Positions 41,703-56,888 are shown, numbered from the stretch's first letter. The stretch is 64,000 nt of DNA from an uncultured delta proteobacterium (GCA_963737905.1 CAVTUQ010000025.1:32001-96000), one strand, 5' to 3'. Translations and numbers: made by a program. The notes: a model not told the origin generated them from the sequence alone.

Positions 41703-42755
41703 CTATCTTTGGTACCCGGTTGTCAATTCAGTGCCCCGATGCCGCCATTTAGGTTCTTTATCAACTGTCTTTAGAGTGATGCTCCGCAAGCCTCGGATCA
41801 TGCTTCCATAAAGCCCGCTAATTCCCGCAGAGACCTTACTTCCCGGAGGTTCGTCCATAAAAGGCATGAACTTGTCCGGGAACCCCGGCATAGTGCAGCC
41901 GATGCAGATTCCACCCACGTTCGGGCAGCCGCCGATGCCGTTAATCCAGCCGCGTTTGGGCACGTTGCACTTGACCACCGGCCCCCAGCAACCGAGCTTG
42001 ACGATGCACTTGGGCGATCCGTATTCCGTTGCAAAGTCACCCTGTTCGTAATAACCGGCCCGATCACAGCCCTCGTGCACCGTTTGACCGAAAAGCCATG
42101 TGGGACGCAGCTGATCGTCCAGCGGAATCATCGGGGCCTGGCCGGTTGCCTGATAAAGCAAATAGAGAATCGTCTCCGACAGGTTGTCGGGATGGATCGG
42201 GCAGCCGGGGACGCAAACGATCGGAATGCCGGCTTTCGACTTCCAACTCCATCCGAGATAATCGGGCACGCCCATAGCGCCGGTAGGATTGCCGGCCATC
42301 GCATGGATGCCGCCATATGTCGCACAGGTTCCTACGGCCATGACGGCCAGCGCTTTAGGAGCCAGCCGGTCAAGCCATTCGCTCGTCGTCATCGGTTGTC
42401 CGGTCTCGAAGTTATTGCCAAAGCCGCACCAGTAGCCCTCCTTCTTGATCGCTTCATTGGGGATGGATCCTTCAACGACCAGCACGAATGGATCGATCTC
42501 ACCCCGCTCGGCCTTATAAAACCATTTGATGAACGTGTCGGCTCCCGGCTCGCCCATGCCGCCGGGACCGCATTCGAAGTCGATCAGCGGCCAGTGAACC
42601 GCGACCTTCGGCAAGCCCGGCAGCGCGCCGAGCACAATCTCCTCGATGCTCGGCTGCGTGGCGGCGGTGAGCGCCACCGAGTCCCCATCACAGCTCAACC
42701 CGGCATTGATCCACAACACGTGCACTAGAGTCTCATCTGTTTTTGGCGCAGCCAT
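41703..42755 (-). CDS. hhyS: group 1h [NiFe]-hydrogenase small subunit
   Basis: GLSCDGDS, VGTCATYGG, PGCP, HEGCDRAGYY, LGCWGP, GGCP..GGICIGC; no Tat signal. Confidence 0.95.
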   Translation of the reverse strand: MAAPKTDETLVHVLWINAGLSCDGDSVALTAATQPSIEEIVLGALPGLPKVAVHWPLIDFECGPGGMGEPGADTFIKWFYKAERGEIDPFVLVVEGSIPNEAIKKEGYWCGFGNNFETGQPMTTSEWLDRLAPKALAVMAVGTCATYGGIHAMAGNPTGAMGVPDYLGWSWKSKAGIPIVCVPGCPIHPDNLSETILYLLYQATGQAPMIPLDDQLRPTWLFGQTVHEGCDRAGYYEQGDFATEYGSPKCIVKLGCWGPVVKCNVPKRGWINGIGGCPNVGGICIGCTMPGFPDKFMPFMDEPPGSKVSAGISGLYGSMIRGLRSITLKTVDKEPKWRHRGTELTTGYQR

Positions 42756-42994
42756 GTTCATTGCCTCCTTTGTGTGCTAGCGAACCGCTCCCGCTCGGAG
42801 CTACGCTCCAGGAAAAGATGGGCCTACAGATTCAATTAACGTGATTAATGTAGTCGGCGCATACTCGCAATACGGAGTACGCCCGTTTCTTTTATGAGGG
42901 ATTAGCCGGTTCGCTCCTAGGGGATTCCCCTAGCAAAACTGCAGTACTGGAATGATGAACAATCACTGCTGCAGATAAATAATTCTTTTCAAAA

Positions 42995-43012
42995 CTGTCC
43001 ACTATTAGACAG
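42995..43012. promoter_or_regulatory. palindromic operator-like site (second copy at 52235-52252)
   Basis: CTGTC-CACTATTA-GACAG, conserved upstream of both membrane-protein paralogs. Confidence 0.5.
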
Positions 43013-43204
43013 CAATCCTTCCCGAGTATGGTTATATTACCCCAGAGAGCTGTAATGGCGTGCAAGAGGTAGAAGACCGGGCCACACACTCAACGGTGAC
43101 ATGGACTTCGGCTCCGGTTTGAATAGCGAACGTATTCCTGGTGCTGACCCCTCTCCCTCTTCCAATATCCAAAGGCTATCAAGAGCCTCAAAAAGGAGAG
43201 AGTT

Positions 43205-43765
43205 ATGAATCCTCTATTGATCATCGCCGTCCCCCTAGGGTTGGTGATTTTGGGCATGGTGCTAAACGGCATCGGCCTTGCTTACGATCAACCCCCCGGT
43301 TCAGAAGAACAAGATCCTACGAAAAGAGTGGCAGCGGAAAAGGAGATTTACCGAAAGTTCTTCAATCTCCAGAGAACCCGATCTGTAACCAGGCAGAAAA
43401 GGGTCGGCCAGTATGGCTGGTTGCTGATGGCTGCCTTTATCGGCGCTTTCATCTGGCTCTATATGTATACCGTGAACAAAACCACCGCGACGACTCGAAT
43501 TGCCACGCTGCAGACACTGCCGATGGAAGAAGGGAAGGGGACGGTTCTCTTGCTCACGCTGAAGGACGGGAGCAGTGTCAAATACCTGATCAAATCACCC
43601 CCACCCGATACCTCGGATGCCGCCACGAAAGAAGGAATTTCGAAACAGAAGGTCTCATCCTGGGACATGGAACAATCAGGTACGGTCTTGAGTATCGGCG
43701 AGAGTCCATTGCCTCTCGGTGTCGCCCTGAAAGTGTCCGTCGACCCGACAGTAAAAAAAGACTGA
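43205..43765 (+). CDS. hypothetical two-TM membrane protein, paralog A
   Basis: AAGGAG RBS; colinear paralog at 52301-52858. Confidence 0.8.
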   Translation: MNPLLIIAVPLGLVILGMVLNGIGLAYDQPPGSEEQDPTKRVAAEKEIYRKFFNLQRTRSVTRQKRVGQYGWLLMAAFIGAFIWLYMYTVNKTTATTRIATLQTLPMEEGKGTVLLLTLKDGSSVKYLIKSPPPDTSDAATKEGISKQKVSSWDMEQSGTVLSIGESPLPLGVALKVSVDPTVKKD

Positions 43766-43808
43766 GTTAAAGCCTCGCCAAAAAAATGGGCGAAGCTTGA
43801 CTGAACGT

Positions 43809-43845
43809 CATTTCCACGTTTCGAGAATTCTCGAAACGTGGAAGT
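43809..43845 (+). repeat. 37-bp palindromic repeat, copy 1
   Basis: CATTTCCACGTTTCGAGAATTCTCGAAACGTGGAAGT with a perfect 32-bp palindromic core. Confidence 0.9.
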
Positions 43846-44010
43846 GTCTTCACGAAAAACGAACACGAGCACGGCTCTTCAGTCTTTATCCTTCCAAACC
43901 CTTAAATAGTCGCCGCGAAATCGCCTAAACTCCGGGCCATGTCTTGAAAGATGACATGGATTTTCGGGTTTCATCCTTTAATCCCTTTGCCTTTCTCCTT
44001 TGAATGAGGT

Positions 44011-44066
44011 GGCAGTATCTTAGATGGGCGACCACGGATCACGAGCAAGATCACGGTGGTTTCCCC
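44011..44066 (+). repeat. linker repeat family B (copies at 45310-45422 and 51152-51207)
   Basis: GGCAGT..CTTAGA..GGCGACCACGGATC.CGAGCA.GATCACGGTGGT. Confidence 0.7.
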
Positions 44067-44175
44067 GAGCATGCGGCCGTACGTTCGTGGTGCGTTCGTC
44101 GAACCATGAAACAGACTCTCCTTGCGGAGGCGTCTATCCCTTGCTTTCACTTTGAAAGCACCTTAGGCTTACTGG

Positions 44176-44667
44176 ATGCGAGGGGCCGCTTTTGACAGCT
44201 CGTTTTGGGTCAATGCAGTTTATCTGGATCTTATCGAGTTCCTGCTTTCGGATTTTGAGTTGATCTGTACTAAGGCGGTGGAAGACGAGTTAGGGCGCGA
44301 TAATTTAACGAGCCGCCGACTCAAGGCATTACTCGCTGACGAGAGTATCAAAAGAGCTGCACCAAGATCGGAAAGGATTAAACTGTATGGAGATGGGGAG
44401 AGAGCCGCTATTAACCTCGCGCTGGAGCGAAAAGTCCTATTGCTCATTGATGACTGGAGGCCTTATGAGGCGGCACAGGCAGCCGGAGTTGAGGTTATCA
44501 ACTCTCTAGCCTACTTGGTCGGGCTTTACGAACAGAAACGAATTACCCTAGAGCGGGCGTTACATGCCCTGGCCAAAACAACGCGCCGCGGAACTTTGAG
44601 ACCCGAATGGATCCAGTCCGCGGTAAGGGTTGTAGCGGAGATCCGACGCAAAGGAGAAAACCGATGA
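44176..44667 (+). CDS. PIN-domain toxin (DUF3368-like)
   Basis: AFDSS, GERAAINLA, LLIDD. Confidence 0.75.
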   Translation: MRGAAFDSSFWVNAVYLDLIEFLLSDFELICTKAVEDELGRDNLTSRRLKALLADESIKRAAPRSERIKLYGDGERAAINLALERKVLLLIDDWRPYEAAQAAGVEVINSLAYLVGLYEQKRITLERALHALAKTTRRGTLRPEWIQSAVRVVAEIRRKGENR

Positions 44668-45035
44668 AAAAGGAAAAACACGAGAAAACGACTGTTACCG
44701 TAAGACTAACAGACGAGGAAGATCAGGTCTTGAGCCGTCTCTGCATACTTAAGAAGACCAGCAAAACTGGATACCTTGCTCGTCTCGCTAAGGAGCAGGC
44801 CAAGCAGGAGCTTCTCCGTTACGCCGCCGAAGAATACCTGGGAGAAAGGGCATCCTTAAGCGAGCTGGCGAAAAAGACCGGCCTGGATGTGCCCACCATT
44901 ATGGATGAGGTTGCCAATCTCAAAGGGGAGGACAAGCGTGCGGTGGAGGCTTTTTTGTCGGCCGTGGAAACGATCTCGAAGTTAAACAAAGATCCAGAGT
45001 TCTATAATCTTGCCATCAATGCCGTCAGAGAATAA
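44664..45035 (+). CDS. putative antitoxin (RHH + HTH, UPF0175-like)
   Basis: ATGA coupling; TTVTVRL, ASLSELAKKTGL. Confidence 0.65.
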   Translation: MKKEKHEKTTVTVRLTDEEDQVLSRLCILKKTSKTGYLARLAKEQAKQELLRYAAEEYLGERASLSELAKKTGLDVPTIMDEVANLKGEDKRAVEAFLSAVETISKLNKDPEFYNLAINAVRE

Positions 45036-45099
45036 ATGCGGCTCCACGGCGACAGCACGTCCGGACCGGGCAGCCCGGTACAGGAGAGCATAGAGCATT

Positions 45100-45186
45100 C
45101 GTTTCCACGTTTTTGGAATTCCGAAAACGTGGAAGTGTTACTGGGACTTCATTTCGACGTTTTGAGAATTATCAAAACGTGAAAGT
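45100..45186 (+). repeat. 37-bp palindromic repeat, copies 2 and 3 (13-bp gap)
   Basis: CGTTTCCACGTTTTTGGAATTCCGAAAACGTGGAAGT and CATTTCGACGTTTTGAGAATTATCAAAACGTGAAAGT. Confidence 0.9.
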
Positions 45187-45443
45187 TCCCCCAGGAACGA
45201 CGATGAGCACGGCTTTTTCCTCTCCTTGTCTCCGCACCTCTTTGTCCCGTGGACCGATTTCTGATCGCCTCACCCTTCACGCCTTACCCGGCACAATTTA
45301 TTTGATGTTGGCAGTTACTTAGACGCGGCGACCACGGATCGCGAGCACGATCACGGTGGTTACCCGTGCACGAGACCCGGGCACGGCTCTTTGCTTTCCT
45401 TCCGCTTCCAGCTTTGATCATTTATCTTTGTCGTTGTTTGGTC

Positions 45444-45799
45444 TTAAAGCGGTAGGAAAACAATTGTCTCCTCCCACTCTTCGGCGGTAGTGGCTTCTGC
45501 GATGAGCACCAGGTCATCAATCACTTGTCCTAAAGCAGCAGTCTGAGGCACCAAGATGAGACCGGTCATCGGCAGTCCTGCTTTTAGCCTTTCTTCCGCA
45601 CAGGGACGCATGGTCCGGTGATCATGTGTGATTACAACCCGACCTTGGGTCGCTGCCCAATCAAGGACCGCGGGGTCGGAGGCTTCAGGGAGATCTACTT
45701 CCTGTACAGTGGTGGAATCGAGATCAGATATTCTTCGGCGCACTCCGCGCACGATTCGCCCGTTGAGGTCTTCGTCGAAAGATACTTGACCCGGCTCAC
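45444..45799 (-). CDS. DUF5615 PIN-like toxin, frameshift in a homopolymer near 45780
   Basis: KYL(F)DEDL, D..VLDWA...RVVITHD; GTGA overlap with DUF433. Confidence 0.75.
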
Positions 45800-46137
45800 G
45801 AAGGCGTGGGTGATTGGCGGCTGGATAGTAGTTGCTGGCGAAGCTTACTCAGGAAGTCTCTGTGGCGACCGTTGAGCTCCTGTTGGAGCTTTTCTGCGCC
45901 GTCACGGCCCGCTCGAAGGTAGGCATCCACTTTGTCCCGCTTTTTCAGATAGTAGGCAATGGCTTCGTAGACTTGCGCTAGAGAGAGAGACGGAAAGTCC
46001 TGGCAAATTTCTTCCGGCGTCGCGCCCTCCCAGAAGGAATGGATCACGCTGTCTAGAGACACCCGAGTGCCGGCGATACGCCAGGTTCCTTGTGGCGTGC
46101 AGGTCAGCAGATCCGGCAGATCAAGATCGGGATTCAT
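45796..46137 (-). CDS. DUF433 antitoxin
   Basis: IAGTRV, GATPEEI..DFPSL...QVYEAIAYY. Confidence 0.85.
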   Translation of the reverse strand: MNPDLDLPDLLTCTPQGTWRIAGTRVSLDSVIHSFWEGATPEEICQDFPSLSLAQVYEAIAYYLKKRDKVDAYLRAGRDGAEKLQQELNGRHRDFLSKLRQQLLSSRQSPTPS

Positions 46138-46217
46138 AAAAAGCCATATTAGACCAGCCAGTTGTTAAGGGCAAATCGCTATTGTGTGTCACTTCCGCCC
46201 TTGGCCCCTCATTACTT

Positions 46218-46255
46218 CATTTCGCCGGTTCGAGAATTCCAAGGAACGTGGTAAG
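46218..46255 (+). repeat. 37-bp palindromic repeat, copy 4 (degenerate, abuts IS21 end)
   Basis: CATTTCGCCGGTTCGAGAATTCCAAGGAACGTGG. Confidence 0.65.
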
Positions 46256-46399
46256 ATGCGTATTCCGATGAAATCGCCACCGATTCCGAAACAAAGTGGC
46301 ACTGATTCCGGCGCAAATCGGCAGTCCGAGAAATCGGAGCGAAGCGACGCTGGGATTTTGTTCATAGCCTAAAGGTTCTCTTTATTGCAAGTCCGGTGA

Positions 46400-47128
46400 T
46401 CATTTTTTCGTTTTTCTGATCGATTCTCCTTTCAGTTCGATTTTAAAACTGTGGTGAAGCAGGCGATCCAAGATGGCATCGGCGACGGTGGGCTCCCCGA
46501 TGATTGTGTGCCAGTCTTTGATCGGGCACTGGCTGGTAATGACGGTGGGAGCCTTATGGTAGCGGTCCTCGATGATTTCGAGCAGATCATTGCGTTGAGA
46601 ATCATCGAGCGGAGTCAGAAACAGATCATCGACGATGAGCAGTTGGACCTTGGCCAGCCGGGTCAGCATTTTAAGATGCGAGCCATCCGCTTTAGCCCCA
46701 AGCAGCATTTCGAACAGACGTGGAGCGCGCAGATAGAGAACCGTATGGCCGTGGCGGGCAGCGAAGTTACCGAGGGCACAGGCAATGTAGCTTTTACCCA
46801 CGCCGGTGGGGCCAGTCAAAAGCATAGTTTGATGACGAGTGATCCAGTCTGAAGAAGAGAGTTCCAAGAGGGTTTGTTTGTTTAAGCCACGGGGATGTTT
46901 GTAATCGATGTCTTCGAGACAAGCGGGTTGGGTGAGCTTAGCGTTTAGGAGGAGGCGTTTAAGGCGGAGATTATCGCGGTAAGTTTTTTCGTCCTGGACA
47001 ATCAGGCCGAAGAACTCCTGGTGGGAGAGATCGACGGATGAGGGATGAGCGATCTTGTCGGTAAAGCTTCGGGCCATACCGAAGAGTTTGAGGGAGTTGA
47101 GGGTGTGCAGAGTTTGTTCGGTAAGCAT
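46400..47128 (-). CDS. istB: IS21 helper ATPase IstB
   Basis: GPTGVGKS, LLIVDD, DAILDRLLH. Confidence 0.92.
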   Translation of the reverse strand: MLTEQTLHTLNSLKLFGMARSFTDKIAHPSSVDLSHQEFFGLIVQDEKTYRDNLRLKRLLLNAKLTQPACLEDIDYKHPRGLNKQTLLELSSSDWITRHQTMLLTGPTGVGKSYIACALGNFAARHGHTVLYLRAPRLFEMLLGAKADGSHLKMLTRLAKVQLLIVDDLFLTPLDDSQRNDLLEIIEDRYHKAPTVITSQCPIKDWHTIIGEPTVADAILDRLLHHSFKIELKGESIRKTKK

Positions 47129-47259
47129 CAGAGATTTTCCTTTCTAGTTTTGGTTGCGGTTTAAAATTGGGGGTAGTCTACCCCTTCAGCCCATTGAGAA
47201 CGTGCGTTAATGAGGCTTTAAACGCGTCGTTTTTTGTTTCGATCATCTGATTTTCACCC

Positions 47260-48033
47260 TCAGTGGTAAGACTGGCCGCCGCGGATGTTGTCGTGGGCCG
47301 GCAGCACCGCCGTCGAGCCCGAGTCTCTTTGTTCCAACCGATCCAGTCCGTTCTCCAACATTTTGCGCAGCGCTTTGAGCGAGAGATTCGAGTAGCGCAG
47401 CGCCCGAGCGGCGGCGTTTTCCAGACGCTCTTTGGGATAGTGCTTATCGAGGCGCAGGATGCCCAGACACGAGCGGTAGGCTTGTTCGGGGTGGGAGCGG
47501 CTCTCGATGATGGTTTTAACCAGTCGAGCGGTGTGCGGACCGGTCTTTTCGGCCCAGCGGATGAATCGCGACGGGCTCCATTCGGCATAGGCCCGGTGGG
47601 TCGGTGGCATGTGTTCTTTGAGCGTGGTGTGCTGATGGGGCACAAAACTTCGCAGGTGGGTGGCTATGCGCTGGCCTTTGCGAAAGGCCTCCACCGTGTG
47701 GGCAGTAAGCCGCACTTGGAGTCTTTCGCCTTTAAGTTTATACGGCACGCTGTAGTAGTGCTCGTCGACTTCGATGTGGTAATCGATGTTGACACCGGCG
47801 ATCTTCCACTCGGCGTACTGGTAAGATTTCTGGGGCAGGGCCAGAGCGTTGGGCTGATCGAAGAGTAAAAAGAGCTGGCGGCGCGATTGCTTGAGTTTGC
47901 GCAGTGCTCGGTTATTCAAAGGTTGGAGCAGTTCACCGATGGCGGCAATAGAGATCGGCCAAGGTGTAAAACAGTCCGATGGCGCAAGACGGCCAGGATC
48001 CAGCGCTTGGCGATCAGCACGCCATTTTCCACC
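47260..48033 (-). pseudogene. istA: IstA transposase C-terminal fragment
   Basis: DYHIEVD.HYYSVPY, HMPPTHR, AYRSCLG, HDNIRG; catalytic N-terminal half missing. Confidence 0.85.
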
Positions 48034-48099
48034 TGCCTTATGAAAGTGTACATTTGAAATCTACCATTTAGAAAATGGATGGGATGGGCGGTTTGCTAC

Positions 48100-48152
48100 T
48101 AAACGACGGCTTGAACGGAGCGAAGCGATTGAACGGCTGGAACGATTGGAAC
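48100..48152 (-). repeat. nonamer-periodic repeat (CGTTC[AC]A..)
   Basis: Reverse complement of the tracts at 56283 and 60103. Confidence 0.65.
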
Positions 48153-48240
48153 GTGTGCCCGCTATGTTGGCATCGCTGGAGAGCCGTGCTAGGATGCATC
48201 ACTACGCTGCACTGTTGATGCACAAGAATTGAGGGGGGCC

Positions 48241-48504
48241 ATGAAGGCAATCACTTTAAGAAACCTACCGCCGGACCTGGCGAAAGCCGTGCGCAGGGAA
48301 GCAGAGCGTAAGCGGACAAGTATCAACAAGGCGGTCATCAGCTTGCTGGAGAGCAAGGCGGATATTCAGAAGAAAAAGAAGGGTCGAAAACCGCATCACC
48401 AAGAGCTGGACGCTTTGGCCGGGTCATGGAGTAAGAAAGAGGCGGAGGAGTTCGACAAAGCGTTGGCCGCTCAGAGACCCATTGATCCCGATTTGTGGAA
48501 GTAA
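48241..48504 (+). CDS. RHH antitoxin (FitA/VapB-like)
   Basis: ITLRNLP, SINKAVISLL, LDALAGSWS. Confidence 0.8.
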   Translation: MKAITLRNLPPDLAKAVRREAERKRTSINKAVISLLESKADIQKKKKGRKPHHQELDALAGSWSKKEAEEFDKALAAQRPIDPDLWK

Positions 48505-48903
48505 ATGCGGTTGTTGCTCGACACCTCCGCTTATTCAGCGTTTATGAGGGGACATGCGGAGATTAGGGCTGCCGTTCAGAGCAATGAAGAGATCTTTCTA
48601 AACTCGGTTATTTTGGGCGAACTCATCGCGGGGTTCATCAAAGGCGGGCGGAGGAGGAAAAACGAAAATGAGCTTCGAAGGTTTCTGGCGTCTCCTCGCG
48701 TAGGGGTTTTGAACGTGACTGAGGAGACGGCCGAAAGATATGCGGTCATTCTCAACTTCCTCTGGCGTGCCGGCACACCTATACCGACAAACGATATCTG
48801 GATTGCGGCCAGTGCTATGGAGCACGGCCTTCGCGTGGTGACGACTGATGATCACTATCAGAAGGTCCCTCAGGTCATGACCGATTATTTCCCGGTCGTA
48901 TAG
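48505..48903 (+). CDS. vapC: VapC PIN toxin
   Basis: LLDTSA, GEL, NDIWIAASA, TTDDH. Confidence 0.9.
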   Translation: MRLLLDTSAYSAFMRGHAEIRAAVQSNEEIFLNSVILGELIAGFIKGGRRRKNENELRRFLASPRVGVLNVTEETAERYAVILNFLWRAGTPIPTNDIWIAASAMEHGLRVVTTDDHYQKVPQVMTDYFPVV

Positions 48904-48910
48904 GCTAATT

Positions 48911-48948
48911 CATTTTGACATTTCGGGAATTCTCGAAAGACTGAAATG
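48911..48948 (+). repeat. 37-bp palindromic repeat, copy 5
   Basis: CATTTTGACATTTCGGGAATTCTCGAAAGACTGAAATG, 7 bp after the vapC stop. Confidence 0.75.
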
Positions 48949-49023
48949 TCACGATAAGTTTGCCGCAGTAATTTGTTCCACGGCTTCCTTGACAACTGTC
49001 ACATTTTTTGGGTACACATATCT

Positions 49024-49218
49024 ATGGGTCGATGGAAGCGTCATGGCGTCATAGTCGTGCTGTTTTCCACCGACCACGATCCGAAGCACGTTCATGTGTT
49101 TGAGGACAGGAAGCGCCTTCTGAAGTTCAATCTCGAAACGTGGACGGTGATGGAGGGAAAGATGACGCCGAAGGCGAAGAAGGCTTTGGAGACTTTACGG
49201 AAAGAGGGGATTTTATGA
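49024..49218 (+). CDS. DUF4160-like small toxin
   Basis: DHDPKHVHV motif; ATGA coupling to the next gene. Confidence 0.7.
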   Translation: MGRWKRHGVIVVLFSTDHDPKHVHVFEDRKRLLKFNLETWTVMEGKMTPKAKKALETLRKEGIL

Positions 49219-49703
49219 GAAACCCGAAATTTAAGGAAATCAAACCGAACTACCGAAAGAACGTACTGGAGATCACGCTGCGCGATGGAAAGAAGATAAA
49301 GAGCTACAGTTTACCCTTCGCGGTCTTCAGGGATGTGAAGGTTAGCAGTAGGAATCGATTTACGTCGATGACGATAGATCGCGAGCTGGGTGACCAAGCG
49401 GTGTCCTTTGTTCTCGAAGATGGATCCAAGGGGGATTTCCCGGCTGACTTCGTCTTGTACTATTGTGATCCCACCTACCATTGGTCGCCGTTGAATCAGC
49501 TAAAGAGTGCACTGAAGGACAAGATTTCAACTTCCAGACTATCTGTTCGTGTGATTGCGGACGCTCTTGATACGTCTCCGTCCCAGGTGGCGCGCTTGCT
49601 CCAAGAAAACAAAACCTCCAAACATATTGTCCAGCTCATTCGGCTGGCCGAACTGGCTGGCTATCAGATCGAGTTTTCCCTCAAGAAGAAGAGAGCAGCC
49701 TAG
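49215..49703 (+). CDS. putative antitoxin with C-terminal HTH
   Basis: SVRVIADALDTSPSQVARLL HTH. Confidence 0.7.
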   Translation: MRNPKFKEIKPNYRKNVLEITLRDGKKIKSYSLPFAVFRDVKVSSRNRFTSMTIDRELGDQAVSFVLEDGSKGDFPADFVLYYCDPTYHWSPLNQLKSALKDKISTSRLSVRVIADALDTSPSQVARLLQENKTSKHIVQLIRLAELAGYQIEFSLKKKRAA

Positions 49704-49769
49704 GATTGCGAGGTTCTGGGGTTTGCTCATTCTGACGGTTTCAACGGTATTTCGGGGGCGGAGGTTTCT

Positions 49770-49943
49770 ATGAAGATAAAATACTCGCGTGACGCGGACG
49801 TTTTGACTATCAAATTACGGGAAGGTAAACCCTCGGATTCGCGAGACATAGCCGAAGGAATCATTGTCCACCTGACGGCCAAAGGGCAGCCTCTAGAGAT
49901 CGAAATTCTCGATGCCTCCAAGGTAGTCTGCGTATTCCGATGA
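49770..49943 (+). pseudogene. DUF2283 gene cut by an IS21 terminal remnant
   Basis: MKIKYSRDADVLTI...IEILDAS, then TGCGTATTCCGATGAAATCG at 49929. Confidence 0.7.
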
Positions 49944-50019
49944 AATCGGCTCATTCACCTATTCAACACCCAGAACTTCATCCCTTGCGGCTAACGTTAG
50001 TTGTGTATATACATAATTG

Positions 50020-50118
50020 ATGTTCGATTGGGACCCTCCAAAGGCAAAGGCTAATCAGCTCAAGCACGGGGTCTCTTTTGAAGAAGCAGCTACGGCATTT
50101 CTTGATAAAAGTTTCTAG
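50020..50118 (+). pseudogene. truncated BrnT toxin
   Basis: MFDWDPPKAKANQLKHGVSFEEA, stops after 32 aa; upstream near-palindrome TTGTGTATATACATAA. Confidence 0.75.
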
Positions 50119-50131
50119 AAAATTTAGCTTG

Positions 50132-50257
50132 CAGGCTGCTCAAAAAGACTCAGAGGCAAGGCGCGCGAACATCGATGAGCGGAGGCGTACTTTTCCTGTA
50201 CGTTGACGCGAAATCGGTCGAGTGCAACGAGGCATATGAGTCTTTTTCAGCAGGCTG
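50132..50257. mobile_element. MITE-like element with about 21-bp terminal inverted repeats
   Basis: CAGGCTGCTCAAAAAGACTCA ... TGAGTCTTTTTCAGCAGGCTG, non-coding. Confidence 0.65.
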
Positions 50258-50273
50258 TTAAGGAGACAAGACC

Positions 50274-50567
50274 ATGAAGCGGTCACGCGGATCATCAGCG
50301 CGAGGCGGGCGAGCCGGAAGGAAAGGAAAGGTTACGAGGAAAAAAAAGATTGACTTTTCGGACATTCCGGAGCTTTCCGAGAAGCAGCTTTCCCGAATGC
50401 GTCGGGTGGGAAGGCCGACGGTGGGTGAGGAACCAAGAAAACTCATCGCGATACGCTTAGATCCGAAAGTCTTGGGTTGGTTGCGCGAAACCGCTGAGAA
50501 AAAGGGATTGCCTTATCAGTCGCTCGTCAATCAGATCTTGGCAGAGGAAATGAAGAAGGCAAGCTAG
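50274..50567 (+). CDS. BrnA antitoxin
   Basis: IDFSDIPEL, GRP, IRLD..VL.W, YQS..NQIL. Confidence 0.85.
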   Translation: MKRSRGSSARGGRAGRKGKVTRKKKIDFSDIPELSEKQLSRMRRVGRPTVGEEPRKLIAIRLDPKVLGWLRETAEKKGLPYQSLVNQILAEEMKKAS

Positions 50568-50589
50568 ACCGGAATAGCAACGCTGCTCA

Positions 50590-50698
50590 GTCCAAGGCCG
50601 TCCTCGACGCGATTCGGCAGCTCATGGCGCCGCCGGAGCCGAACAAACGGAAAATCGGCTTTCTGGTTGAGGAAAAAGCAGCACGCTACGGAAGGTGA
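50590..50698 (+). pseudogene. C-terminal remnant of an ORF6N-like protein
   Basis: VLDAIRQLMAPPEPNKRKIGF...AARY*. Confidence 0.55.
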
Positions 50699-50709
50699 TA
50701 GCGACCTGT

Positions 50710-50746
50710 CATTTTGACGTTTCGAGAATTATCAAAACGTGGAAGT
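50710..50746 (+). repeat. 37-bp palindromic repeat, copy 6
   Basis: CATTTTGACGTTTCGAGAATTATCAAAACGTGGAAGT. Confidence 0.9.
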
Positions 50747-50759
50747 CCCCCCGGTTATT

Positions 50760-50897
50760 GTTGTGAAGAAGGGTAAACCCTTTGCGGCAGTAGTCGCTGC
50801 GTTGGAAGAGACGAGCCCGAAAGTTTATATCATTACAGCCTACGAACCGAATCTGGAGCACTTCGAGAATAACTTTAGAACGAGGAGAAAGAGGTGA
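50760..50897 (+). pseudogene. 5'-truncated DUF4258 toxin remnant
   Basis: VYIITAYEPNLEHFENNFRTRR* with no start; begins just after repeat copy 6. Confidence 0.6.
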
Positions 50898-51133
50898 ATA
50901 AGAAGAAGGCGTCAACCCTGTGCCCAATTTGTTCTGGTCGCAAAAAGCGGGGGACTACGACCTTCACCGCCGATTTGGATTTCGGTGTCGTTGTAGTGCG
51001 GAAGGTACCGGCAACAGTCTGTAGTCAATGCGGCGCGGACTGGATTGAGGATAGGATCGCCAGGCAGCTCGAAGATATTGTTAAGGACGCCCGGAAAAGG
51101 CGACTGGAAGTAGAAGTTACCTCTTTCAGTTGA
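50894..51133 (+). CDS. YgiT/MqsA-type zinc-finger antitoxin
   Basis: CPIC...VPATVCSQCG. Confidence 0.8.
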   Translation: MNKKKASTLCPICSGRKKRGTTTFTADLDFGVVVVRKVPATVCSQCGADWIEDRIARQLEDIVKDARKRRLEVEVTSFS

Positions 51134-51308
51134 GTAGCTTCGGAGAGGCTCGGCAGTGAGACCCGGGCACGGCTCTTTGCCTTCTTTCACTTTCGGCTTT
51201 GACCATTCATCCTTGTTTAACCCGCCGGTGACCGGAGATGCGGGCTCGAAAATCGAGCCTAACAGGTGATATAGACGAGCCGCTCGCTATCGTGTAGAAT
51301 TTTCGCTG

Positions 51309-51539
51309 ATGAAAATACTCAAAGCTAAGTATGAAAACGGGCAAGTGAAATTGACGGAGCCGGCGCCAGAAGCCGGACCCGTCGATGTGGAGGTCGTGTT
51401 TCTTGACCGAGATGATCAGCGTTGGGACGAAATCATTCGAGACCCTGGGCTCAGGCCGGCTCTTTGCGCTGAGGCCGATCAGGTTCTTGAGGACTATCGG
51501 GTAGGTAAAACGGCGCCTCTGGACCCCGAAAAACTCTGA
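51309..51539 (+). CDS. putative antitoxin (AF2212/DUF104-like N-terminus)
   Basis: LKAKYENGQV; acidic C-terminus; coupled to the downstream toxin. Confidence 0.65.
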   Translation: MKILKAKYENGQVKLTEPAPEAGPVDVEVVFLDRDDQRWDEIIRDPGLRPALCAEADQVLEDYRVGKTAPLDPEKL

Positions 51540-51805
51540 ACAGCCGAACACATCCTCGCTTTTGGGACCGCTACCGTAAACTTCCTGCTCAGGTTCAGGA
51601 AGAAGCCAGAAAAGCCTATCGCCTTTTCAGTCAAAACCCCGCTCACCCGAGTTTGCGGTTTGAGCGGCTGGCCTACGATCCTCGTCTCTGGTCGGTCCGC
51701 GTAACAAGTTCATATCGTGCCGTAGGTGTACGCGAAGGAGAGGAGATCATCTGGTTCTGGATCGGATCTCACGACGAATTTGACCGAACGTTCCCTCGCC
51801 GATAG
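51536..51805 (+). CDS. RelE/ParE-like toxin with apparent CTG start, absent from the ORF track
   Basis: 89-aa open frame: FWDRYRKLP...NPAHPSLRF...WSVRV...YRA...WFWIGSHDEFD; CTGA overlap. Confidence 0.75.
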   Translation: MNSRTHPRFWDRYRKLPAQVQEEARKAYRLFSQNPAHPSLRFERLAYDPRLWSVRVTSSYRAVGVREGEEIIWFWIGSHDEFDRTFPRR

Positions 51806-51954
51806 CTTCTTCTCTAAATTGCTGTATTCTGTCCCAAGGAAATCCGCTGACGCCGAGAAGCGGGCGATCGTCCACCATCTTCAGCGCAAATTCGCGGAGA
51901 CCTCGGATTGGTCAGCAACAGTGGGAGACCGCTTACCCGAAGCCGGTTGAGGTA

Positions 51955-51991
51955 CATTTCGAGGTTTCGAGAATTATCAAAACGTGGAAGT
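51955..51991 (+). repeat. 37-bp palindromic repeat, copy 7
   Basis: CATTTCGAGGTTTCGAGAATTATCAAAACGTGGAAGT. Confidence 0.9.
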
Positions 51992-52300
51992 TCCGCCAGG
52001 AACGGAGGACTAAGTCCCGCAGGATCTCCGAACACGATCACGAGCCACGAACATGGCCCTTTACCCCTTTTGTCAGAACCGGGCCATGCGGGCGCCGGGG
52101 TTACGGATAAGACCAAGCCGCACGATCCTTTTCTCGAGGATGGAGCCAAGCGGAAAATGCGCTCCTTCTGTTCACGCCCTCCACGGCGCTCTTTACGGAG
52201 AGCGATCTTTTTATCGCGATAATTCTTTTCAAGACTGTCCAATATTAGACAGCAATCCCTCCCGGGAGAGGCTATCAAGAGCCTTAAAAAGGAGAGAGTT

Positions 52301-52858
52301 ATGAATCCTCTAATATTGATCGCTGTACCCTTAGGGTTGGTGATCCTGGGCATGATATTGAACAGCCACGATCTCGGGTTCAATCAACCGCCAAGCTCGA
52401 CGGAGCAAGATCCGGTTAAGAGATTGACTGCGGAAAAGGAATCTTACCGCCAGTTTTTTGACCGGCAGCGCAAACGAGCGGTGACCAGGCAGAAACGGGT
52501 CGGGCAATATGGCTGGTTGCTGATGGCCGCCTTTATCGGCGCTTTCATCTGGCTATATATGGATACGGTGAATAAGACCAGCCTTTCGAGTCGAGTTGCC
52601 GCGCTTCAAACATTGGGAACGGAAGAAGGTAAACAGATGGTTCTCTCGGTGACGCTGAGCGACGGGAACAATGTCAAATACTTGATCAAATTACCCCAAG
52701 CCGACAAATTAAATGCTCCCGCAAAAGAAGACGTTAAGATAGAAAAGGTCTCATCCTGGGAGCTGGAAAGATTAGGCACGGCATTGAGTACCGGCGATAA
52801 TCCGTTACCTATGGGTGTCGCGCTGAAGATTTCCCAAGTAGCAAAGGAAGCCAGATAG
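52301..52858 (+). CDS. hypothetical two-TM membrane protein, paralog B
   Basis: Shares the identical 27-aa stretch VTRQKRVGQYGWLLMAAFIGAFIWLYM and upstream DNA with 43205-43765. Confidence 0.8.
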   Translation: MNPLILIAVPLGLVILGMILNSHDLGFNQPPSSTEQDPVKRLTAEKESYRQFFDRQRKRAVTRQKRVGQYGWLLMAAFIGAFIWLYMDTVNKTSLSSRVAALQTLGTEEGKQMVLSVTLSDGNNVKYLIKLPQADKLNAPAKEDVKIEKVSSWELERLGTALSTGDNPLPMGVALKISQVAKEAR

Positions 52859-52946
52859 AGCCGGGGATTTCTAGAGATCGTCGTTGGCGCAGATGCGTCT
52901 CGCATAAATGGCTCTAAGTTTAATCTACAAAAGGAGGTAACTGAAA

Positions 52947-53510
52947 ATGGAAAACAATATCGAGACCAATCCCATGAACCATGACATCTTGGCGGGAAGG
53001 TGGAAGCAAATGCGCGGCGAGCTCAAAACGTGGTGGGGCAAACTCACCGATGACGACGTCGATAGAATCGGCGGTCAGAAGGACAAGCTGATCGGTCTGA
53101 TCCAAGAGCGATACGGGTATACTCGCGAGCAGGCCGAGCAAGAGATTGAGCGGCGCTTTCAAGAGTATGGCGACAAGACAGGCGGGGTCGTTGCCAGTAT
53201 GTCGGCCAAGGCCCGAGAGCTCGGCTCGACTGCAGCGAGAAAGGCGAACGAAGGGGCACCCGTTATCGGTGAGAAGATGAAATCGCTGGCGAGCGTGATC
53301 CGTGAAAAGGCGCCGCGCGAAGGCAAGATAGGCACAACTGCAACCAAAGTAGCGGGCGGGTTAGAATCGGCGAGTTATTATCTGCAAGAGAAGAAATTCG
53401 AGCATCTGGGAGAAGACTTGAGTGGCCTGGTTCGTCGCTACCCGCTGCAGGCGCTGTTGGTCGGTCTTGGTTTAGGCTTTTTGCTCGCCGGACGTAAGAA
53501 AAAGGAATGA
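52947..53510 (+). CDS. CsbD-family stress protein with C-terminal membrane anchor
   Basis: GRWKQ.RG...WWGKLTDDD...IQERYG; ends VRRYPLQALLVGLGLGFLL. Confidence 0.85.
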   Translation: MENNIETNPMNHDILAGRWKQMRGELKTWWGKLTDDDVDRIGGQKDKLIGLIQERYGYTREQAEQEIERRFQEYGDKTGGVVASMSAKARELGSTAARKANEGAPVIGEKMKSLASVIREKAPREGKIGTTATKVAGGLESASYYLQEKKFEHLGEDLSGLVRRYPLQALLVGLGLGFLLAGRKKKE

Positions 53511-53782
53511 ATGATCAGAAAAGCTATAAGAGAAGCATGAGCACCTCTAGCAAGGGTGCTGAAAAAGAAATCCAAGATCAGACTTGAGTTCCCGAATTGG
53601 CACCTCAAGCTGGTGATTCTCGGGTTCTTGTCAGAGGGAGGTGATTTTTTATGGCGCATGATCACAAATATATTATCGCGGACGATCAGGAGACCAGTGA
53701 AATCAGCTCACTAAAGGGGGCGGGTCCTGGGGTCAAATCTTTATTCTTGACATTCATGCCTCGCTTCGCATAAAAAATCGAC

Positions 53783-54250
53783 ATGGCGCGACCACTGAGA
53801 ATAAACTACCCCGGAGCTTTTTATCACGTGACCTGCCGCGGCAATGAACGGAAGACCATTTTCGCTGATGACCGGGATCGGTCGATCTTTCTCGACAAGG
53901 TCAAAACATCCAATGAGATTTATCAGGTTCGGATCCATGCCTACGTGTTGATGAGCAATCACTTTCATTTGATTGTTGAGACGCCGAAAGGGAACCTTTC
54001 CGAGTTCATGCGGCATTTCAATATCACTTACACTGCAGCCTATAATCGCCGCCACAACCGGATTGGCCACCTCTACCAGGGAAGATTCAAAGCGATCTTG
54101 ATCGATGCTGACAATTACCTGCTGGAACTCAGCCGATATGTGCACTTAAATCCAGTACGATTGGCCTCGTATAAGGGGCGGATGAGCGTGAAAAGATCAA
54201 GGATCTAAAGTGCTATCGGTGGAGCAGTCTTGGAGGATATCTCAGCTCGC
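53783..54250 (+). pseudogene. Y1 HUH transposase (RAYT-like), frameshifted and 3'-truncated
   Basis: MARPLR, YHVTCRGN, MSNHFHL, YVHLNPVR; YRWSS appears in another frame near 54215. Confidence 0.8.
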
Positions 54251-55675: not shown

Positions 55676-55930
55676 ATGAAACCCATAAGACTCTCGGTGC
55701 ATGCGTTGAGTTATATCGTCAAGCGAGGATTTACAGTTGCCGAGGTGGAAGACACGATAGGGACTGGCCGGTGGGAACCGGCGGAACTCGGCCGGATGGA
55801 TTGCCGCAAGACATTTCTGTTTAACCGAAAATGGAACGAGAGACTCTATGCAAATAAGGAAGGGCGGCCAATTTTCGTTGAAGAAGCGGATGAAATCGTG
55901 GTTGTGACGGTTTATACTTATTACTCATGA
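55676..55930 (+). CDS. DUF4258 toxin-like protein
   Basis: SVHA....KRG, IVVVTVY. Confidence 0.75.
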   Translation: MKPIRLSVHALSYIVKRGFTVAEVEDTIGTGRWEPAELGRMDCRKTFLFNRKWNERLYANKEGRPIFVEEADEIVVVTVYTYYS

Positions 55931-55945
55931 CGGGGGAAACATTAT

Positions 55946-56164
55946 ATGAAGATTAGTTACGATTCAGAAGTCGACGCGCTGAGCATCACGTTCCGCGAAA
56001 CAACCGTGACCACCAAGCATTTGGGAGAAGGGATAGCGGCTGACTACGACGCAGACGGAAAGTTGGCCGGCATAGAAATCCTGGATGCTATCAAGCGCTT
56101 CGGCGGGAAAGAAACGTTACGTCAGGTCGTTATTGAGGGCCTCGGTCCCACGCAAACCACTTAA
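55946..56164 (+). CDS. DUF2283 protein
   Basis: MKISYDSEVDAL, DYDADGKLAGIEILDA. Confidence 0.85.
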   Translation: MKISYDSEVDALSITFRETTVTTKHLGEGIAADYDADGKLAGIEILDAIKRFGGKETLRQVVIEGLGPTQTT

Positions 56165-56200
56165 ACTTGTCCGCCAAAATGTTTCGCTTGTTGAACGAAG

Positions 56201-56495
56201 CCCGGTACCGGGTCGCCCAGCGCAACGCATTGATTAAACGATAGAAGACTGTATCAATAGCGCGGTCTATCTAAACAGCAGCCAGTTCCAGTCGTTCCAA
56301 TCGTTCAATCGCTTCGCTCCATTCATCACGGGGATCAGTCCGTTCCCGGTTTTCCAATCGTTCAATCGCTGCGATTACCAAAACGAAGCCACTTCGTTCA
56401 AATCGTTCAAGCCGTTCAACCGCTTCGCTCCGTTCAAACCGTTTTAAGCCTAATGCAGGTTCCAAGCGTTCCAAAGTTCCAGTTGTTCCAATCGC
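56201..56495 (+). repeat. boundary element C plus nonamer tract (copies at 59941 and 63151)
   Basis: CCCGGTACCGGG...GCATTGATT...AATAGCGCGGTCTA...CCAGTTC followed by CGTTC(A/C)A repeats. Confidence 0.75.
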
Positions 56496-56651
56496 TCATA
56501 ACTGGTAATAAAACCATTCCAGTTCTATACACAAAAATAGCAAGTCAAAGACTTTGGCTATGAGGATAGCAAGTTGGGGCGCTACAATTTCCTGAGCCCG
56601 GCCGTTCTTATAGCAGATTGCGTTCTACCGGGGTTCTTATAAATTAGGTGC

Positions 56652-56876
56652 ATGCCTATCGATCGTATCACGATCAAACCGGATGTGTGCGGTGGTGAGC
56701 CGACAATTCGCGGCATGCGAATTACGGTGAGCCATGTGCTTGAAATGCTTGCCGGCGGAATGACACCGGAGCAAGTCCTGCAAGACTTCCCGTATCTTGA
56801 AAAAGCCGACATTGATGCGTGCCTTGAATATGCGGCACGTCACGTGGCCCATCGCGAAATCCCGCTGACCCAGTGA
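56652..56876 (+). CDS. DUF433 antitoxin
   Basis: RITIKPDVCGGEPTIRGMRI, DFPYL. Confidence 0.9.
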   Translation: MPIDRITIKPDVCGGEPTIRGMRITVSHVLEMLAGGMTPEQVLQDFPYLEKADIDACLEYAARHVAHREIPLTQ

Positions 56877-56888
56877 AGTTTCTTGTCG

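Follow-up and report, generated by a model that had tools for sequence, protein, structure and literature searches.

A co-oriented palindrome restricted to one family of uncultured soil bacteria marks cassette breakpoints in arrays rich in toxin-antitoxin genes

The window, that is the whole stretch of DNA analysed, comprises 64,000 nucleotides from an uncultured delta proteobacterium (GCA_963737905.1 CAVTUQ010000025.1:32001-96000). It contains seven copies of a short palindrome interspersed with small gene modules, and the features identified in and around this array are as follows.

42979..43035, +, conserved 57-nt element D5, upstream of gene A1; second copy at 52219-52275
43205..43765, +, gene A1, encoding a predicted membrane protein of 186 aa without Pfam or NCBIfam match
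43809..43845, +, palindrome copy 1, near-perfect, with 19-nt arms that are 95% complementary
43930..44078, +, repeated module D7, rich in CACGAN hexamers, after the palindrome (repeat search; D7, D8, D14)
44176..45035, +, two-gene module of 163 aa and 123 aa (ORF calls), without Pfam or NCBIfam match
45100..45136, +, palindrome copy 2, with 16-nt arms that are 94% complementary
45150..45186, +, palindrome copy 3, a variant with TTTTGAG...ATCAAAA arms and one G·A mismatch, 50 bp after copy 2
45444..46137, -, DUF5615 (PIN-like) and DUF433 pair (E 9e-8 and 4.9e-13), in opposite orientation to the repeats
46218..46254, +, palindrome copy 4, with an intact left and a degenerate right arm; the end of the IS21 element abuts it
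46254..48039, -, truncated IS21-family element, IstB intact, IstA with its C-terminal part only
48229..48903, +, FitA-like RHH antitoxin and PIN (VapC-type) toxin (domain search)
48911..48947, +, palindrome copy 5, with an internal 5-nt mismatch block and a degenerate right arm
48973..49750, +, DUF4160 gene and partner gene, a cassette with a 93% identical counterpart on contig C2
49770..49943, +, DUF2283 gene (E 5.9e-15)
50020..50567, +, BrnT-like 5' fragment (recognised by eye), MITE and BrnA antitoxin gene (domain search)
50710..50746, +, palindrome copy 6, arms mismatched
50739..51133, +, probable DUF4258-type 3' fragment, beginning within copy 6, and YgiT/MqsA-type zinc-finger gene
51158..51812, +, ParE-like module, matched by G001:C156:2573-3238 at 91% identity
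51955..51991, +, palindrome copy 7, with mismatches between the arms
52301..52858, +, gene A2, paralogous to A1 (DNA about 76-78% identical) and not followed by a palindrome
53783..54208, +, truncated IS200-like Y1 (HUH) gene (PF01797, E 4.7e-13), a neighbour of the array

A repeat search of the window recovered a seven-copy family starting at 43805, 45096, 45146, 46214, 48907, 50706 and 51951, each member corresponding to one of the palindromes listed above, which are about 37-41 bp long with the consensus TCATTTCGACGTTTCGAGAATTCTCGAAACGTGGAAGTRTC. The same search returned a 41-nt family of six copies from which the degenerate copy 4 was left out. A 24-nt core, searched with up to three mismatches, matched four of the seven sites (43816, 45157, 50717 and 51962; 0.00 expected in 100 shuffles), the remaining three copies being more diverged, and a profile made from all seven recovered each of them in the window's contig. 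The single extra match of the profile within the window was non-significant (E = 1.9). These searches bear out the initial annotation of the sequence, which had placed seven copies at the listed palindrome positions and none elsewhere in the window.

Gene A1 is a recurrent cassette gene followed by the palindrome 40-90 bp past its stop codon, and homologues from three other genera lie directly 5' of a palindrome at loci L028, L034 (twice), L035 and L042. The two D5 elements are 86% identical and have about ten further copies in the genome. Copies of module D7 in G000:C2 and G001:C156 contain a promoter-like TTGCCA-17/18-TAGAAT when read by eye, which a computed scan of the region did not recover. 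The IS21 element matched IstB_IS21 (E 3e-67) and Mu-transpos_C_2 and has 85% identical copies on contigs C2, C22 and C4, while the BrnT-like fragment is split by the MITE (150 bp, 50110-50260), which has inverted ends and about 30 copies in the genome; the BrnA gene itself spans 50274-50567. The array had been described as a series of varied toxin-antitoxin modules; family matches were obtained for the DUF5615/DUF433, RHH plus PIN, DUF4160, DUF2283, BrnA, YgiT/MqsA-type (TIGR03831, E 2.6e-10) and ParE-like modules, and none for the genes at 44176-45035. Copy 6, said to sit where a DUF4258 gene is cut off, does abut an ORF, but in a single comparison this ORF matched the C-terminal 43 residues of a DUF4258 protein weakly (28% identity, E = 0.057).

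The palindrome is restricted to a single family of uncultured bacteria from soil (Binatia). Its core was found in 30 of 36 genomes of this family and in none of 24 genomes from two sister families; in a class-level screen it occurred in 17 of 25 genomes of the family and in none of the 275 genomes that represented 19 other families. Reversed-pattern controls gave no match in either screen, and in a further search the reversed pattern matched twice in one genome, G013. Exact matches to a 29-mer among species representatives numbered 35; apart from one short contig under another label, all were in Binatia-type MAGs. There are 1-47 copies per genome, mostly in arrays (1-28 core matches in the screen of relatives at up to three mismatches), as in G032, where 22 copies out of 47 core matches in that genome fall within 24 kb. 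The palindromes of relatives likewise form co-oriented, toxin-antitoxin-rich arrays, and more than 20 genera retain the primary sequence although the cassettes that bear it are unrelated. In the 6.7-Mb genome of the window, a profile search found about 12 copies, seven in 8.2 kb and about five elsewhere. The scan of this and related genomes that had been proposed thus found the repeat clustered and conserved across the family, and because only about five further copies exist in 6.7 Mb it is not an evenly spread REP.

Singleton copies follow a P-type ATPase gene (C39), lie just past hydantoinase B (C26) or follow a phosphopantetheinyl transferase gene (C2), all of them positions where a gene ends or two genes converge. 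Such positions, together with a median distance of 88 nt from stop codon to hairpin, would suit a passive hairpin, either REP-like or a terminator, stabiliser or processing site of transcripts, that small selfish modules carry at their 3' end. The modules would then pile up in islands to give arrays, shuffled homologously as the 40-bp repeats recombine by ordinary homology. This is the main rival to a recombination site, and we consider it rather unlikely. REPs are palindromes of 20-40 bp and, in the one account drawn on here, carry GTAG or CGTC at one end (PMC3733652), and the present repeat resembles REP/REPIN sequences, which are short (20-40 nt), lineage-specific extragenic hairpins with one-strand recognition and are known rearrangement hot spots. 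Neither tetranucleotide was found at the ends of the consensus, CGTC being confined to the interior of the stem on the bottom strand, and unlike REP/REPINs with RAYT (TnpA-REP), of which hundreds would be scattered, the palindrome is low in copy number, clustered and co-oriented, with neither inverted doublets nor a Y1 gene flanked by it. It was rejected as a REP/REPIN on these grounds. Terminators do not show such conservation of primary sequence among genera and unrelated cassettes, and among 13 terminator-like calls (GC-rich stem and T-run) at 42700-53000 none coincided with a palindrome, which has no T-run, so that an intrinsic terminator was rejected also. With a crude ORF caller, the ORF upstream of the palindrome was on the same strand in 58 and on the opposite strand in 37 of 95 cases, the latter speaking against a passive hairpin. 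An Rfam scan of 42000-54000 returned no family, the one match being due to chance (E 0.97).

All seven copies score higher on the plus strand, as expected from the single orientation first reported; these scores alone are circular because the profile was built from plus-strand copies. The same asymmetry, detailed below, recurs among 127 copies from other genomes, and in 22 of 25 distinct multi-copy loci all copies are co-oriented, the other three having one odd copy each. Covariation was assessed on the 127 copies from other genomes. Positions 14/25 are C-G in 70 and T-A in 45 copies, positions 16/23 A-T in 87 and G-C in 19, and positions 6/33 C-G in 61 and T-A in 31; none of 500 shuffles reached any of five covariation measures, and slid partners scored lower. 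A T·G wobble at positions 3/36 (89 of 127 copies) and a non-pair, the G·G mismatch at positions 7/32 (also 89 of 127), mark one strand of the palindrome, an asymmetry expected of a site used as folded single-stranded DNA. Copy 1 is predicted to fold as single-stranded DNA at -17.6 kcal/mol (z -5.6), copies 6 and 7, with C·A and G·A mismatches, gave no single-strand fold, and the two strands fold nearly alike as DNA (-17.6 versus -17.5 and -12.4 versus -10.5 kcal/mol).

The T·G wobble would suit an RNA hairpin on the sense strand as well. As a G·U pair on the strand common to most genes it would also accord with a passive hairpin. The two-fold symmetry of the consensus and its invariant ACGTTT...AAACGT blocks are what an operator would show if a dimeric DNA-binding protein co-regulated the cassettes. 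This we regard as very improbable: different symmetric variants with compensatory changes coexist within one genome, which speaks for base-pairing and not for the reading of half-sites, the sites are mostly downstream of genes, and a symmetric dimer gives a conserved strand asymmetry no role.

Comparison of flanks showed that the palindrome stays with the upstream cassette and that similarity breaks at its 3' foot. Among flank-sharing pairs, drawn from few flank families and not independent of each other, ten had only the left flank in common and 14 only the right. Identity in the left-sharing pairs was 1.00 through position 38 (background 0.28) and at background level at position 39; in the right-sharing pairs the variable arm positions were unlinked and identity returned from position 43, positions 39-42 forming a hypervariable tetranucleotide after the hairpin foot. 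Between arrays, 32 ends of similarity fell at the 3' foot against 2.7 expected (about 12-fold). Turnover of modules at the repeat, as anticipated in the initial annotation, is thus seen at this foot, but 240 of 499 ends lay more than 200 bp from any copy. The other array repeats, D7/D11, the MITE and IS21, mark breakpoints too, in line with a passive hairpin, whereas the concentration of breaks at one edge and the linkage of the whole palindrome to the left flank, with no random split, run counter to it.

Individual loci add detail on module turnover. At a locus with the same right flank, G000:C2 has one cassette and G001:C156, from the same genus, three different ones, and copy 5 with its 3' flank and next cassette is duplicated at G000:C2:521080-522035. 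Soil-metagenome contigs of relatives, representing DNA of other organisms, contain the junctions 43845/48982 and 43845/48106, position 43845 being where copy 1 ends, as well as 46183/50708. No circular or excised cassette forms were seen among assembled contigs. The ParE module common with G001 starts inside repeat D11 and stops 143 bp short of copy 7, and no palindrome is present at the end of the DUF4160 cassette (about 49750), either in the window or on C2.

A breakpoint at the hairpin foot followed by the hypervariable tetranucleotide, and the Y1_Tnp gene 1.8 kb to the right of copy 7, raise the question of whether the repeats are subterminal hairpins of non-autonomous IS200/IS605-type (HUH, Y1) elements, with cassettes as peel-and-paste units that a Y1 transposase moves, for instance one from the family to which the truncated gene at 53783-54208 belongs (full-length relatives have about 300-330 aa). 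The likeness to IS200/IS605-derived palindrome-associated elements is that hairpins are recognised on one strand and cleavage occurs near the hairpin foot, as in IS608. Two site variants are often paired closely (12 of 17 pairs less than 150 bp apart are mixed), but this excess is weak (p about 0.05) with pairs related to each other, and along arrays the variants do not alternate, same-variant runs being common. Unlike in IS200/IS605 elements, no two distinct hairpins form the left and right ends and no Y1 gene is linked; neither the repeat nor a shared hairpin flanks any of the genome's five Y1 loci, and the Y1 family is found in 32 of 36 genomes of the family but equally in the sister families that have no repeat (5 of 5 and 17 of 19). 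Mobilisation of this kind therefore appears improbable.

No integron integrase is encoded within the window, as had been noted, but the genome carries one on another contig (C7:226498-227442, 456 bits versus a cut-off of 265). At 18 IntI-bearing loci from 15 genomes the palindrome profile had no matches (E <= 1), and the IntI genes of the family adjoin classical attC sites (L030, L033 and L055) of 57-99 nt, for example GCCTAAC...GTTAGGC. No recombinase gene recurs next to the arrays (138 ORFs, 36 array loci). The sole transposase or recombinase domain was an rve integrase-core ORF at L053:430-1944, 371 nt upstream of the palindrome at L053:2315 and absent at the other array loci.

The palindrome looks like an integron-like recombination site because it marks points of cassette swapping. 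As in integron attC/CALIN arrays, each cassette is followed by an imperfect palindrome in the common orientation, this site is kept with the upstream cassette and exchange is at its 3' end, and the arrays are rich in toxin-antitoxin genes, far from an integrase and variable between close relatives; the sequence is taxon-specific, as is that of attC. The attC consensus has R'' (RYYYAAC) at the 5' end and the complementary R' (GTTRRRY) at the 3' end. The palindrome ends with neither box, in accordance with the initial annotation, and has core GTT and AAC triplets on opposite arms. In attC hairpins an unpaired central spacer and extrahelical bases mark the recombined strand; the palindrome, 37-41 nt long with an almost continuous stem, has the conserved G·G mismatch and T·G wobble but no bulged bases or unpaired spacer. 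Textbook attC sites, and never the palindrome, flank the IntI genes of the family. Many of its cassettes also seem to carry their own promoter-like module, unlike attC cassettes. A crude attC-like regular expression (xxYTAAC...GTTRRxx, complementary ends) matched once in 258,824 bp of palindrome-array loci and five times in 169,085 bp of IntI loci. CALINs are, as far as the source used here describes them, at least two attC sites without a nearby intI, half of them in genomes encoding IntI (PMC4889954). The arrays match this in layout alone (no integrase in the array, IntI elsewhere in the genome), and classification as CALIN was rejected because the palindromes are not attC by sequence. The pdif modules of Acinetobacter plasmids, to the extent that the account available covers them, are likewise small, often toxin-antitoxin modules that move between replicons in an Xer-dependent manner and have short, partly palindromic sites at their borders, with the recombinase encoded elsewhere. 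In these plasmid-borne 28-bp XerC/XerD sites a 6-bp spacer separates two different 11-bp arms, and the orientation of the sites alternates. Judged against these features, a Xer dif/pdif site was rejected, as the palindromes are co-oriented, chromosomal and longer, with arms that covary like a stem.

The suggestion of recombination sites of an undescribed cassette-capture system thus agrees with the junction behaviour, clustering, conservation, co-orientation and separation from attC/IntI, but no recombinase is linked to the sites. We give about even chances to the palindrome serving, much as attC does, as a hairpin recombination site in a non-canonical, integron-like cassette system, with a candidate recombinase encoded away from the array that would act in trans. 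Against this stand the many breakpoints far from any copy, the ends of the ParE and DUF4160 modules, the only mild bias in gene orientation, the nearly equal folding of the two strands, the lost folding of copies 6 and 7, and the fit of the T·G wobble to an RNA hairpin. A cassette would consist of a promoter-bearing small gene set, mostly a toxin-antitoxin pair, followed by the hairpin, which may fold as single-stranded DNA with the T·G wobble and G·G mismatch marking one strand for recognition. Excision and integration would proceed by exchange at the hairpin 3' foot, at about repeat positions 38/39, and since exchange would take place there, arrays could grow and reshuffle in one orientation. 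The enzyme may possibly be the integron integrase of the family itself, with the palindrome as a second kind of substrate site; probably it is something else. If true, the palindrome system differs from the classical integron that the same bacteria carry.

The palindrome, a 37-nt hairpin repeat, formed an in-register family of seven members starting at window positions 43805, 45096, 45146, 46214, 48907, 50706 and 51951, in agreement with the seven copies reported in the initial annotation. A repeat search of the window returned a 41-nt family holding six of the seven copies, and the 24-nt palindrome core, allowing up to three mismatches, matched four sites against 0.00 expected from 100 shuffles, the remaining three copies being more diverged than these four. 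Copies 1 and 2 were near-perfect (arm complementarity 95% and 94%) and copy 3 contained a single mismatch; the right arms of copies 4 and 5 were damaged, and copies 6 and 7 each had two arm mismatches and had lost single-strand folding. A profile built from the seven window copies was searched against the whole 6.7-Mb assembly, in which the window corresponds to C25:32001-96000; besides these seven, it identified four unambiguous singletons and a half copy.

Palindrome copies of this genome identified by profile search beyond the seven in the window (contig:position)
C2:522010, singleton
C39:25145, singleton
C40:121467, singleton
C21:81934, singleton
C26:242120, half copy

Three weak profile matches on contig C7 represented a different repeat, flanked by GTTCAA. 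With few copies in the genome, and these clustered, the palindrome is therefore not an evenly spread REP, the reading that had been set against cassette capture at the outset.

The palindrome core was present in 30 of 36 genomes, representing 22 of 23 genera, of the Binatia family to which this genome belongs and in none of the 24 sampled from two sister families; a reversed-pattern control gave no matches. G006 and G012, both among the 30, carry an unpublished flag, and leaving them out gives 28 of 34. An even class-wide sample gave 17 of 25 genomes of this family compared with 0 of 275 genomes of 19 other families. An exact 29-mer had 35 matches among 185 579 species representatives, all but one in MAGs labelled as Binatia or, in older entries, as delta-proteobacteria. 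The exception among palindrome contigs (L085, 4648 bp), labelled Candidatus Udaeobacter and thus a Verrucomicrobia MAG, is the same contig as C147 of genome G014, and its label probably reflects a problem of binning or labelling. No matches to the core were found in viral contigs, and none of the public sequencing runs contained more than 0.16 of the sampled words, and no RNA run was listed as containing them.

Arrays were also found in relatives. The near-complete genome G032 had 22 copies within 24 kb (its contig C2, 1245038-1268957), 21 of them sharing one orientation, together with HigB/Gp49-HTH, DUF4258-MqsA, DUF433, HepT-MNT, HicAB and PIN modules; other array loci encoded PIN, Zeta, HEPN, AbiEi/AbiEii, DUF5615/DUF433, NERD and four-helix-bundle proteins. 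Copy orientation was uniform in 22 of 25 distinct loci with at least two palindromes. The median spacing was 927 bp, with 57 of 76 intervals between 150 and 3000 bp and 16 below 150 bp. Close pairs, 37–142 bp apart (in loci L031, L032, L036, L042, L052 and L053, and at window 45100-45186), mixed the two main sequence variants in 12 of 17 cases against 47% expected (p ~0.05), the pairs being mutually related; recombination may remove tandem sites of the same variant, a possibility that these numbers suggest weakly. A test for replication-strand bias based on local GC skew around six loci revealed no consistent relation to palindrome orientation.

An alignment of 127 distinct copies, in which 19 stem pairs were counted, showed compensatory changes (positions numbered along the repeat). 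Positions 14/25 were C-G in 70 copies and T-A in 45, positions 16/23 A-T in 87 and G-C in 19, and positions 6/33 C-G in 61 and T-A in 31. The observed covariation was reached by none of 500 shuffles on any of five measures, and every measure was lower with slid partners. Since one genome can hold several symmetric variants, these data argue for base-pairing over reading of half-sites by a dimer. Two conserved asymmetries, T·G at positions 3/36 and a non-pair, mostly G·G, at 7/32 (each in 89 of 127 copies), define the orientation of the palindrome and make the top strand the better DNA hairpin by at most ~2 kcal/mol. In RNA, the conserved T·G would just as well form a G·U wobble, which is the chief point for reading the palindrome as an RNA element; none of the hairpins was called in an intrinsic-terminator scan, and an Rfam scan of the region gave only a chance match.

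Pfam and NCBIfam scans supported a series of modules between the copies (listed below); the first two-gene module of the array matched no family in these scans.

Modules of the window array (identified by family scan unless stated)
DUF5615/DUF433 pair, inverted relative to the repeats
FitA-like RHH antitoxin and PIN toxin
DUF4160 gene and partner gene
DUF2283 gene
BrnA gene, with a BrnT-like start 5′ of it (the latter read by eye)
YgiT/MqsA-type zinc-finger gene
ParE-like toxin

Of the DUF4258 gene described as cut off at copy 6, a probable 3′ fragment with a weak match was recovered, beginning inside copy 6 and located 5′ of the zinc-finger gene. The BrnT-like start is broken by a MITE-like element of 150 bp with inverted ends (50110-50260; ~30 genome copies), and a truncated IS21 (46254-48039) adjoins copy 4. 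The IS21 end beside copy 4 (46250-46276) has a 27-nt match (89%) at the 3′ end of the DUF2283 gene (49922-49948), which may be a solo IS21 end from an earlier rearrangement. The array is bracketed by the paralogous genes A1 (43205-43765) and A2 (52301-52858), forming repeat family D1 and encoding a 186-aa predicted membrane protein, with copy 1 lying after A1. In three other genera, a homolog of A1 lay immediately 5′ of a palindrome, at five places in total, and gene A is on this basis read as a putative recurrent cassette rather than a fixed anchor.

Additional elements accompany these genes. Located 5′ of members of the gene A family (42979-43035, 52219-52275 and ~10 other genome places) is a conserved 57-nt element, D5, that contains an inverted repeat (GACTGTC...GACAG). 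A repeated module often follows palindromes, both in the window (43930-44078, 45280-45431, 51158-51216 and 52029-52141) and beyond (G000:C2:522089-522207 of this genome; L045:2400-2640). It comprises a promoter-like part, read by eye in the C2 copy and in that of the related genome G001 (TTGCCA, 17–18 nt, TAGAAT), successive CACGAN hexamers, and a small GC hairpin whose tail is T-rich (GGGCACGGCTCTTTGCC); the module could serve as promoter and leader of a cassette, or represent a small RNA. Small TA-type genes also lie to the right of the array, where there is no palindrome: those at 55677-56165 and 56650-56877 appeared DUF4258-like, DUF2283-like and DUF433-like by eye, and a PIN gene at 62715-63131 had a Pfam match.

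Pairwise comparison of 50 nt on either side of all palindrome copies identified ten pairs with only the left flank in common and fourteen with only the right, drawn from few flank families and hence not independent. In left-sharing pairs position 38 was fully identical (background 0.28) and position 39 was at background level. In right-sharing pairs the variable arm positions 2, 6, 14, 16, 22 and 25 were at background, with high identity again from position 43; positions 39–42 were linked to neither flank. Judged from these identity patterns, the palindrome is part of the upstream cassette and exchange maps to its 3′ foot, the same logic as in attC, the classical cassette site, which likewise stays with the upstream cassette and is exchanged at its 3′ end. 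One copy in G032 had the left flank and arm variant of a second copy and the right flank of a third that carries a different arm variant. A less conditioned test, using 499 unique similarity ends between array loci, placed 32 ends within −5 to +8 of position 38 (2.7 expected) and 25 in the left half of the palindrome (4.7 expected). Module breaks at the repeat, as proposed initially, were therefore evident at the 3′ foot, but 240 of the 499 ends were more than 200 bp from any copy.

Individual loci illustrate both kinds of boundary. Contigs C156 of G001, a genome of the same genus, and C2 of this genome end in a common right flank (a D5 repeat element and a gene A remnant), with RHH-PIN, ParE-like and nucleotidyltransferase cassettes in the former versus one DUF4160 cassette in the latter. 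Downstream of a Meth_synt_2 gene, G001, G002 and G023 have ~105 bp followed by a palindrome, and the sequence common to G001 and G002 extends as far as the palindrome right arm before diverging; no clean attB-like empty site was readable at this position in the present genome because its sequence there is unrelated to those of the three relatives. In assembled soil-metagenome contigs of other, related organisms, sequence joints lay at copies; in one of them, the final base of copy 1 is joined to where the DUF4160 cassette starts. The ParE module common to G001 starts inside repeat D11 and stops 143 bp short of copy 7, and the DUF4160 cassette ends at ~49750 without a palindrome, both in the window and on C2. 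IS21, MITEs and D7/D11 modules have also rearranged these islands.

The absence of an integron integrase (IntI) noted initially applied to the window but not to the genome, in which contig C7 encodes a full-length IntI (226498-227442; 456 bits; cut-off 265), the only one of this genome. Its neighbors (G000:C7:222000-227442; L007 and L008) were by eye lexA, imuA/imuB-like and HigA-like genes with GTTCAA 9-mer repeats. Neither the 20 kb upstream nor the 14 kb downstream of this IntI contained a visible cassette array, and two crude regex scans of the genome gave no convincing classical attC clusters. Arrays of the 9-bp unit GTTCAANNC occur in at least ~20 genome places (among them window 48095-48152 and 56270-56500, and L007:15680-19110 on C7). 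Beside this IntI they flank, in inverted orientation, ORFs that by eye resemble 23S-IVS-type four-helix-bundle genes, which were Pfam-supported in other array loci; array and flanked ORFs together look like another small mobile unit.

IntI matches (E ≤ 1e-40) occurred in 20 of 36 genomes of the family; in the sister families, 0 of 19 genomes of one and 2 of 5 of the other had a match, the latter two being partial. Textbook attC sites of 57–99 nt (for example, GCCTAAC...GTTAGGC) adjoin IntI in G032, G021 and G018. The palindrome profile (E ≤ 1) found nothing in 18 IntI-bearing loci (169 085 bp), and a crude attC regex matched once in 258 824 bp of palindrome-array loci versus five times in the IntI loci. 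Fairly complete genomes without an IntI match also carried palindrome arrays (G001, G005, G011 and G025). As observed initially, attC R-boxes are absent from the palindrome; its GTT and AAC triplets, moreover, lie on swapped arms compared with attC. Based on R-boxes, the crude regex and the IntI loci, the palindromes are therefore not classed as attC, nor the arrays as CALINs, despite working in a similar way.

The HUH nuclease suggested as an enzyme for the hairpin was not borne out, as none of the five loci of Y1 (an IS200-like HUH gene) in this genome was flanked by a palindrome. The Y1 gene at 53783-54208 is not supported as a partner, its family being present in 32 of 36 genomes of the palindrome-bearing family and, in the palindrome-free sister families, in all 5 genomes of one and 17 of 19 of the other. 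This gene is cut short at 141 aa compared with ~300–330 aa in relatives, and its family had 19 matches in G009 and 20 in G015 (matches, not copy numbers), with a single match in the sister family. Among 138 ORFs of 36 array loci, transposase or recombinase domains were absent but for an rve integrase-core ORF (L053:430-1944), located 371 nt upstream of the palindrome at L053:2315 and at no other array locus.

The palindrome is a real element that is specific to one family, has a paired structure and is marked on one strand; it is enriched at cassette junctions, where it has a defined polarity. This enrichment and polarity, together with the family-wide arrays, lend partial support to the cassette-capture system proposed initially. 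We consider the chances about even that the palindrome serves as the non-canonical recombination site of an integron-like cassette system, with a putative recombinase acting in trans. That it is a passive hairpin seems less likely; if only structural, it would still be a clean case of a family-specific repeat organizing rearrangement hot spots. Only tentatively, and on the doubtful side, do we suggest that one Binatia family has two cassette systems, IntI/attC and a second, undescribed one in which a 37-nt hairpin would be cut at its 3′ foot by a non-IntI recombinase and which would be specialized in promoter-bearing TA/defence cassettes.

Literature searches found no paper on Binatia with integrons, and for TA cassette arrays and palindromic or attC sites returned classical integron work only; no description of the palindrome was found in these searches. 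To our knowledge, among systems that stockpile genes as cassettes via a folded single-strand site, integrons alone are well understood. If the palindrome is a second class of such sites, cassette capture would have arisen, or diversified, on more than one occasion, given that the palindrome differs in sequence, has a shorter, near-perfect stem and, within the genomes concerned, is unlinked to the integrase platform. Search tools based on the classical attC model would miss the palindrome, so such arrays may be under-counted. The system, if confirmed, would also provide a handle on how TA/defence islands are assembled in uncultured soil bacteria.
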